Origin: Octopus vulgaris
Lineage: Eukaryota
Assembly (NCBI GenBank): GCA_951406725.2
Contig: OX597824.1
Location: 55,676,001-55,740,000, forward strand
Direction of reading: 5' to 3'
DNA length: 64,000 bases
The notes under the pieces were generated by a model that saw only the letters and a program-made list of their open reading frames with translations, searched no databases and was not told where the DNA came from. Both the position numbers and the translations under genes were made by a program. Positions 28,007 to 29,519 of this stretch are shown here, piece by piece; the stretch's first letter is position 1; every line of letters starts with the position of its first letter.

Positions 28007-28234
28007 ATATATATATATATATATATGTATATATATATATATATATTATATAAAAGGGCTTAGTAAAATAAATTACTTTGCCACATACTGAACTCATTAG
28101 AAATAGTAGCTAAAAAAACTTTTTTAAAACTATTTCTAATACTTAAAGAAAATCTCTCTCATATAGTGTTTGCTCAATTCAACTCATGAAAGTATGGGGG
28201 TAAAGACATTAAAAAATCAAATGCAAAGGTTATT

Positions 28235-28287
28235 TGAGAACGTACGTTTCAAGATTAGTCAAACTCGACATTTCTATCATCAGCTCA
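28235..28287 (-). ncRNA. Minimal type-I hammerhead ribozyme (inverted copy)
   Basis: Reverse complement of 28511-28563. Confidence 0.8.
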
Positions 28288-28510
28288 GAACTCCTTGGTT
28301 TGGATCTGAAAACACTGAAAGTGGGAGCATACCCTTTCGGATTCTTATCGCTTCTGAAGGTCTGCTCGAAACTAACAGTGCCAACATACCCAAAAATGCA
28401 TTTTTTGGGTATGTTGGCACTGTTAGTTTCGAGCAGACCTTCAGAAGCGATAAGAAGCCAAAAGGGTATGCTCCCACTTTCAGTGTTTTCAGATCCAAAC
28501 CAAGGAGTTC

Positions 28511-28563
28511 TGAGCTGATGATAGAAATGTCGAGTTTGACTAATCTTGAAACGTACGTTCTCA
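28511..28563 (+). ncRNA. Minimal type-I hammerhead ribozyme
   Basis: tgag-CTGATGA-tagaaatgtc-gagttt-gactaatctt-GAAAC-GTAC-GTT-ctca; stem I tgag/ctca; palindromic helix III ACGTACGT; GUU site. Confidence 0.8.
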
Positions 28564-29074
28564 AATAACCTTTGCATTTGATTTTTTAATGTCTTTACCC
28601 CCATACTTTCGTGAGTTGAATTGAGCAAACACTATATGAGAGAGATTTTCTTTAAGTATTAGAAATAGTTTTAAAAAAGTTTTTTTAGCTACTATTTCTA
28701 ATGAGTTCAGTATGTGGCAAAGTAATTTATTTTACTAAGCCCTTTTATATAATGTAATAATTTGAATTCGCCTTAAATGGTCCCTTTACATACTGAACAC
28801 TTGGTGAAATTGATTAATAATTAATTAATTAATTTTACCCTCAATTGTTGAAATTATAATTCATCTCTCTCTATTAAATGTTTCGGATTTACCGAAAAAA
28901 CATAGTGTTTACTGATTTTAACCCACGCTGGTGGAAAGGGGAGAGCAGAAATTCTTCGCTTGCATTTTTTGGGTATGTTGGCACTGTTAGTTTCGAGCAG
29001 ACCTTCAGAAGCGATAAGAAGCCGAAAGGGTATGCTCCCACTTTCAGTGTTTTCAGATCCAAACCAAGGAGTTC

Positions 29075-29127
29075 TGAGCTGGTGATAGAAATGTCGAGTT
29101 TGACTAATCTTGAAACGTACGTTCTCA
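29075..29127 (+). ncRNA. Hammerhead copy with an A6G core change (CTGGTGA)
   Basis: Otherwise the same as 28511-28563, 564 bp downstream. Confidence 0.7.
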
Positions 29128-29519
29128 AATAACCTTTGCATTTGATTTTTTAATGTCTTTACCCCCATATTTTCGTGAGTTGATTGAGCAAACACTATAT
29201 GAGAGAGATTTTCTTTAAGTATTAGAAATAGTTTTAAAAAAGTTTTTTTAGCTACTATTTCTAATGAGTTCAGTATGTGGCAAAGTAATTTATTTTACTA
29301 AGCCCTTTTATATAATGTAATAATTTGAATTCGCCTTAAATGGTCCCTTTACATACTGAACACTTGGTGAAATTGATTAATAATTAATTAATTAATTTTA
29401 CCCTCAATTGTTGAAATTATATATATATATATATATATATATATATATATATATATATATATATATATATATATGTATATATACATATATATATATATAT
29501 ATATATACACATATACAAA

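Follow-up and report, generated by a model that had tools for sequence, protein, structure and literature searches.

The window analysed here is a 64,000-nt stretch of Octopus vulgaris DNA (assembly GCA_951406725.2, contig OX597824.1, positions 55,676,001 to 55,740,000). It contains an insert that is flanked on both sides by (TA)n and is composed of an inverted arm (28042-28400) and a direct run (28397-29421). The left (TA)n target tract spans 28006-28046 and the right tract spans 29418-29508. The direct run, on the forward strand, begins with a full 564-nt retrozyme unit (28397-28960) that defines the unit positions 1-564 used throughout. It continues into a second unit whose 3' end lies at a site termed B; this unit had been predicted to be full, and it is partial, with positions 1-462 of 564 (28961-29421). 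The inverted arm, on the reverse strand, runs from unit position 360 to 1 and its 3' end lies at another site, termed A. The predicted inverted palindrome is real, with arms of 355 nt (28042-28396 and 28402-28756) that are 99% complementary. It has no spacer because the arms overlap by the 4-nt self-complementary TGCA (28397-28400) that forms the head-to-head junction; one indel lies in the flanking A/T run. The inverted arm and both direct units have the locus-private variant 42C in common. Within the full unit, a conserved terminal module on the forward strand (28658-28858) contains three stems together with site A (CCCU..UAUA, about 28737-28756) and site B (CCCU..UUAUA, about 28838-28858), which lies about 101-102 nt from site A.

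The region is about 30% GC, and its units stand in direct tandem without LTRs. As predicted, there is no credible open reading frame: only stop-to-stop frames of 133-146 aa were found, none of them protein-like. An ORF scan of the unit yielded no reverse transcriptase (RT) plus GIY-YIG frame, and the tblastn matches at the fetched loci fall outside the units. All four hairpins named in the original prediction are present in the predicted fold of the unit, whose monomer has a fold z-score of -7.7 (0 of 100 shuffles fold equally well). The window locus is best explained as a single insertion from a tandem-repeat family that encodes no protein. A separate single-armed copy (L070) of a related subfamily occupies 63819-64000 on the forward strand with 91% identity, which bears out the further copy expected near 63822. 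This copy extends beyond the end of the window and stops at position 462 of its second unit, which is site B. At about 63000-63215, and maybe from further left, an inverted repeat unrelated to the unit was spotted by eye, with arms of about 90 nt and a short spacer. Elsewhere the window holds ORF fragments (4071-5084, 36793-37356, 38262-43580 and 49017-52162) that we take to resemble a PIF1/Helitron helicase, a mariner transposase and two LINE families.

Each unit contains a type I hammerhead motif, as judged by the motif and by covariation. The cores begin at 28515 (+), 29079 (+) and 28283 (-), in agreement with the predicted hammerheads at 28511-28563, 29075-29127 and 28235-28287 and with their spacing of 564. 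Hammerhead 1, with its extended helix I, spans 28502-28572 (+); its core helices lie at 28511-28563 and the GUU of the predicted cut ends at 28559. The hammerhead of the inverted arm (28235-28287, -) has an intact core. Hammerhead 2 (29066-29136, +) carries the A6G change, confirmed at 29082 and present in one of the 138 pieces that span a hammerhead; this hammerhead is predicted to be inactive. Because of this change, and because the antisense arm covers hammerhead 1, the window locus is probably spent and would release no monomer. In a fold-back transcript hammerhead 1 would pair with its own antisense arm instead of folding, and the locus, if transcribed, would more likely yield a 355-bp hairpin RNA.

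The description of these hammerheads as minimal was mistaken. In the minimal type of Penelope-like elements (PLEs) helix III and loop 3 are absent and helix I is short (PMC4209133), whereas in the octopus motif helix I is extended, helix II is long and interrupted by an internal loop, and helix III is present with a palindromic loop. Its long helices I and II place it nearer to canonical retrozyme hammerheads than to minimal ones. A search with the Rfam hammerhead models gave no match at the gathering score, nor at E<=10, and the identification therefore rests on motif and covariation. Some Rfam miRNA models matched below threshold and were set aside as hairpin-driven. A degenerate hammerhead pattern has 1,822 matches in the genome, which are motif hits and not loci, against 0 for the reversed-pattern control. 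From 71 distinct hammerheads, 23 non-redundant variants were aligned to a hand-written secondary structure. In this alignment 91.5% of cells are paired, against 32-40% in slid controls, and 13 of 20 base pairs show two-sided change; these counts include related sequences, so that 91.5% is not a probability. Core pair 3-8 is C-G in 12 variants, U-A in 6 and U-G in 5; the U3-G8 core is found in one sister lineage, and U3-A8 is a described variant of PLE hammerheads (PMC4209133). The predicted palindromic helix III holds up. Seven of the 12 distinct loops can pair with themselves (2.3 expected by chance), and helix III with its loop remains self-complementary over lengths of 6-10, which would fit cleavage as a double hammerhead. 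In the young family core positions have fewer changes than the rest of the unit (5/1,481 vs 724/58,904), and for inherited variants the difference is non-significant (0 at 11 sites vs 52 at 454).

A young, non-autonomous family had been proposed, and this is supported. Its copies are dispersed over many contigs in unrelated flanks. Searching the genome with the unit produced 1,522 candidates. Scores were obtained for 40 of these: the window itself and 39 other loci that were fetched. Sample 1 consists of these together with L070 (41 records) and is biased to full, similar units. A pattern for the terminal module, taken before site A, has 7,092 genome matches, again motif hits and not loci. Head-to-head layouts are present in 28 of the 41 records, and arms reach 13 full units (L043). 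At 34 of 40 loci (TA)4 occurs within 40 nt of both ends, compared with 6% per side in the window. In related subfamilies, one of them a sister with a unit of about 554 nt, the stems are preserved by compensatory changes. For this sister retrozyme family (L125:1501-2054, first seen at L106:1047-1497) there are 1,875 search candidates; its cores are U3-A8 or U3-G8, and its arms end at the same two sites. The clan also includes a short A/B palindrome that lacks the hammerhead. It is present four times on contig C1 (L249-L252) between identical flanks, so it was duplicated together with its surroundings. Contigs assembled from three presumed-RNA runs and one other run cover the unit in 27-30 of 30 bins and include the tandem joint; among the public data sets listed as containing the unit, none is recorded as RNA.

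Divergence among units is 0.52% inside one arm, 0.76% for opposite arms and 2.19% for different loci, and at 10 loci private variants are carried in both arms. There are 33 haplotypes among 40 loci, and the within-locus variant spectrum is U-shaped (85 fixed, 107 single, 19 intermediate); together these imply frequent passage through one unit. The mutation spectrum was taken without L070, and homopolymer and AT-tract columns were dropped; an A-to-I editing signature was considered and rejected, with A>G at 16 and T>C at 16 among inherited variants. Stray neighbouring fragments in L049, L051 and L060 and the rearranged left arm of L043 were removed before counting, as were the duplicates L033 (of L032) and L179 (of L178). 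L032 and L033 lie about 80 kb apart on one contig (C9) and have the same flanks, a flipped centre and one unit of difference; either a duplicated insertion was later rearranged, or two haplotypes were placed one after the other in the assembly. L053 and L043 are mosaic arrays. These cases indicate that arrays change after insertion, so that neither arm lengths nor shared variants reflect the original event alone.

The outer ends of the arms cluster at site A (350-372) or at site B (455-465), and two-armed loci combine one of each. In sample 1 the two-armed loci comprise 23 AB pairs (22 without the L032/L033 duplicate), no AA and no BB, and 5 loci with one site and one off-site end. With the ends taken as independent and equally likely, the pairing at 22 independent loci has P=2e-7. 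Single-armed loci of this sample end at A (7), at B (5) or elsewhere (1), and at L037 and L044 short opposite arms were missed by the arm filter. Sample 2 was drawn irrespective of similarity, as the first 100 pattern matches along contig C1. After removal of one duplicate and of two loci that sample 1 already contained, it comprised 51 loci that are 70-99% identical to the window unit where aligned. A motif caller found AB at 18 of them, BB at 1 and AA at 0, with one end called in 26/51 and none in 6/51 (P=4e-5, on the same assumption of independent and equally likely ends). The sole BB locus seen is L147:1185-2222. L089, an unselected copy beside a PLE, is also AB.

The original prediction had made the spacerless palindrome the main feature. 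It proves to be a special case of the general head-to-head layout: over 27 two-armed loci the centre offset is spread from 0 to 258 and is 0 in the window only. Near-perfect centres also occur at L053 (offset 6) and L089 (offset 5). Spacerless centres are not enriched, since offsets of <=6 in 2 of 27 are not clearly above chance. Of 27 junctions, 14 overlap by 1-6 nt, 4 are blunt, 8 are gapped and one overlaps by 14 nt. Most B arms extend far past site A. Three loci (L246, L144 and L154) have a short B arm with no sequence in common with the A arm; at L246 it ends just 3' of site A. Arm starts lie near the predicted hammerhead cut in 1 of 69 cases, and a search for template-jump scars at that cut gave 0 indels in 137 pieces.

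Mobilisation by PLEs had also been predicted, and it stands as far as the insertion signature is concerned: partial tandem, head-to-head copy, tail at one end and (TA)n target are all present. The parent pLTR was not found. At least four PLE families of this genome are intact, and in four of them (Hydra-840, Hydra-842, 1199-aa and 781-aa) no extended pLTR homology to the unit was detected. A 61% match beside the 1199-aa PLE is a sister retrozyme and not the pLTR of that element. From the terminal-motif matches 13 loci were chosen, mostly isolated ones, and these are short or degenerate retrozyme copies with no ORF of >500 aa. One of the families, P0002, is intact, young and 840 aa long. It has the KWK form of the RWK motif, DKT, CxCX5C, CxxC and CxH, which are marks of the Hydra clade (PMC8557442). 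Its copies have two end sites, both within (TA)n and each preceded by a motif of similar form, C(C/U)CUAAU (CUCUAAU and CCCUAAU). Among 22 position-ordered loci its ends pair as AB 9 times and as AA or BB 0 times; 12 of the remaining loci have one end and 1 is a same-strand tandem. This pairing shows that the end rule belongs to PLE enzymes. P0002 is the best fit of the four families, with 86 nt between its A and B motifs against about 101 in the retrozyme, and is only a candidate helper of the retrozyme. The 1199-aa and 781-aa families, which are presumably Neptune-like by their motifs, have tails of about 40 nt.

Further PLE sequences were seen along the way. Broken Hydra-clade copies lie in the window at 14240-16023 and 20231-20629, and their intact relatives (L086-L097) form a young 840-aa family with its own hammerhead, often in long tandems. 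A PLE RT fragment occupies 55702-56628; its relatives (L106-L112) are a young family that makes head-to-head inserts and whose frames, measured stop to stop, reach 1199 aa and have an N-terminal part rich in Asn and Ser. The young 781-aa family (L259-L263) has a hammerhead-like motif in its pLTR, also with a U3-A8 core.

The account that we prefer, with a probability of roughly 0.7, is that the octopus family is a non-LTR retrozyme copied into (TA)n by a borrowed PLE enzyme that primes both ends of the break on one RNA, at A and at B. It builds on what is observed, namely the layout, the two fixed 3' ends, the A/B pairing, the shared arm haplotypes, the covarying helices and the same rule in a Hydra-clade PLE. 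In the first step, hammerheads would join in pairs by way of the self-complementary helix III and cleave a tandem transcript. A dimer of the PLE RT/GIY-YIG protein would then grip the structured terminal module and cut both (TA)n strands. The released 3' ends, which are (TA)n on either strand, would pair with UAUA stretches, one at A and the other at B. From there two cDNAs would extend inward for variable lengths and their ends would be joined by short microhomology, leaving a head-to-head insert with the A-B interval of about 100 nt as a 'tail' at one end only. At the window locus both cDNAs would have halted at the same TGCA. The last step would make multi-unit arms by more-than-unit copying, most simply on a circular monomer, and we hold the circular template at even odds. 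An anole PLE provides the biochemical precedent. In vitro it cleaves both strands and extends them, starting at two internal RNA sites whose interval is the tail, and the enzyme is predicted to be a dimer (PMC11167929). Pairing per molecule lay outside the assays of Frangieh et al. (PMC11167929). Two results of the same study speak against our account, as priming was non-homologous and hammerhead cleavage was dispensable (PMC11167929). The octopus loci also hold points against clean twin priming: B arms that run far past A need strand displacement or later rearrangement, and there are the BB locus (L147) and the 5 off-site-end loci of sample 1. Further points against the account as a whole are the missing pLTR homology in the four intact families, the changes of arrays after insertion, the U3-G8 core of one sister lineage, the non-significant core conservation among inherited variants and the lack of an Rfam match.

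The strongest competitor concerns only the last step and keeps twin priming. It places the priming on an uncut or linear multi-unit transcript, with the hammerhead retained for another step and arrays kept uniform by unequal crossing-over and gene conversion. We consider it a serious contender at somewhat under even odds. The main in vitro substrate of the anole PLE is unprocessed RNA (PMC11167929), and the mosaic arrays and the unit number that changed after duplication also agree with it, as does the fact that no RNA circle was seen in octopus. On the other side, the few intermediate variants (19 vs 85 fixed) and the 33 haplotypes among 40 loci point to single-unit bottlenecks. Related retrozymes form circles in coral, mussel and axolotl (PMC7229834), and RNA circles have been proposed for PLEs (PMC4209133). 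The lack of indels at the hammerhead cut and the single arm start near it speak against jumps between cut linear monomers and leave uncut RNA unaffected.

A second competitor replaces twin priming by a single priming event followed by fold-back: one cDNA or antisense RNA would prime itself and copy itself, a TA-rich site of the target would take up the copy, and the arms would exchange their lengths by flips at a later stage. Self-priming of an antisense strand was proposed for PLE palindromes by Arkhipova et al. (PMC3846280). It would account for the shared haplotypes and the near-perfect centres of the window, L053 and L089, and a flip is observed between L032 and L033. It has no way, however, to produce the arms without common sequence at L246, L144 and L154. 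It leaves without reason that the second arm always ends at the other site. Single-armed loci that end at A and B alike and the scatter of centre offsets also count against it, and we regard it as improbable. The A/B exclusivity, the shared haplotypes and the non-overlapping arms are better fitted by twin priming on one RNA. A last idea is that the palindrome arose as an artefact of assembly or of long reads folding back, or that the family is a satellite with a chance hammerhead-like motif. In its favour are the spacerless centre and a TGCA junction unconfirmed in the public contigs of the four runs (which carry no strand, end or circle information). It is very improbable, as the inverted arm stops at site A, adjoins unique flank and has private differences from the direct arm, dozens of loci from several subfamilies have the same layout, and the reversed pattern has no genome match.

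The origin of tandem and inverted PLE inserts and of their one-sided tail has been stated as open (PMC8557442), and according to a review animal retrozymes are without a motif that points to a helper (PMC7761336). The view that animal retrozymes are non-autonomous PLE derivatives is already in print (bioRxiv 10.64898/2026.07.22.740005; PMC7761336). No description of the A/B rule, of a twin-priming account of PLE inserts or of cephalopod retrozymes was found in the accessible main texts that were searched; the octopus family may already be catalogued in Repbase or Dfam. What is added here is a retrozyme that bears the full PLE end signature together with a quantitative rule common to an intact PLE of the same genome. 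The shared rule ties the retrozyme to PLEs by mechanism, beyond co-occurrence or pLTR similarity. It predicts for each molecule that A is paired with B on the same RNA, which the existing in vitro PLE assay can test, and the 564-nt unit offers a compact candidate substrate with two mapped start sites. The thousands of head-to-head loci are likely a source of double-stranded RNA. More tentatively, and with less than even confidence, twin priming may be obligate for PLE enzymes, with a dimer that holds two sites of one RNA and begins a cDNA at either end of the cut, and the octopus clan may be a circular RNA parasite of them. If so, obligate twin priming alone would give both the one-ended tail and the head-to-head inversion of PLEs. 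The octopus clan would have retained just the two-site handle and a dimer-gated hammerhead, and two polymerases would circle one RNA, leaving multimeric arms on either side.

In L1 twin priming, both target ends prime on one RNA and the resulting inversion is sealed by microhomology. The octopus sites differ in being fixed and internal and in alternating almost strictly, and read-through is possible for both cDNAs. P0002 has the same (TA)n target, two motif-marked ends and AB pairing (9/9), whereas its hammerhead is different, its motif spacing is 86 instead of about 101 nt, and it has no extended DNA homology to the retrozyme. EN+ PLEs (PMC8557442; PMC3846280; PMC11167929) are like the octopus family in their partial tandems, inverted 5'-truncated copy and AT-rich or (TA)n targets, and the tail is often at one end only (Craig et al., PMC8557442). 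They are also alike in a hammerhead upstream of two RT start sites and in the U3-A8 variant (PMC4209133). The octopus family differs from EN+ PLEs in the lack of an ORF, in a tail of about 100 nt instead of 30-40, in arms that can both be multimeric, and in junctions with TA microhomology. Animal non-LTR retrozymes (PMC7229834; bioRxiv 10.64898/2026.07.22.740005) are likewise non-coding, low-GC tandem units in dispersed arrays, with one type I hammerhead per unit and a weak palindromic helix III, and the mismatch at the base of helix II is as in axolotl HHR_Amex2. Their units measure 170-400 nt (PMC7229834) or 51-972 nt (bioRxiv 10.64898/2026.07.22.740005), against 564 nt in octopus. Circles and cleavage have been demonstrated for them (PMC7229834; bioRxiv 10.64898/2026.07.22.740005), while the octopus family is known from its DNA sequence. 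The word 'inverted' is absent from the text of PMC7229834, and parts 1-3 of 5 of bioRxiv 10.64898/2026.07.22.740005 do not describe a two-armed A/B layout; the octopus family differs in its head-to-head layout with fixed A and B ends.
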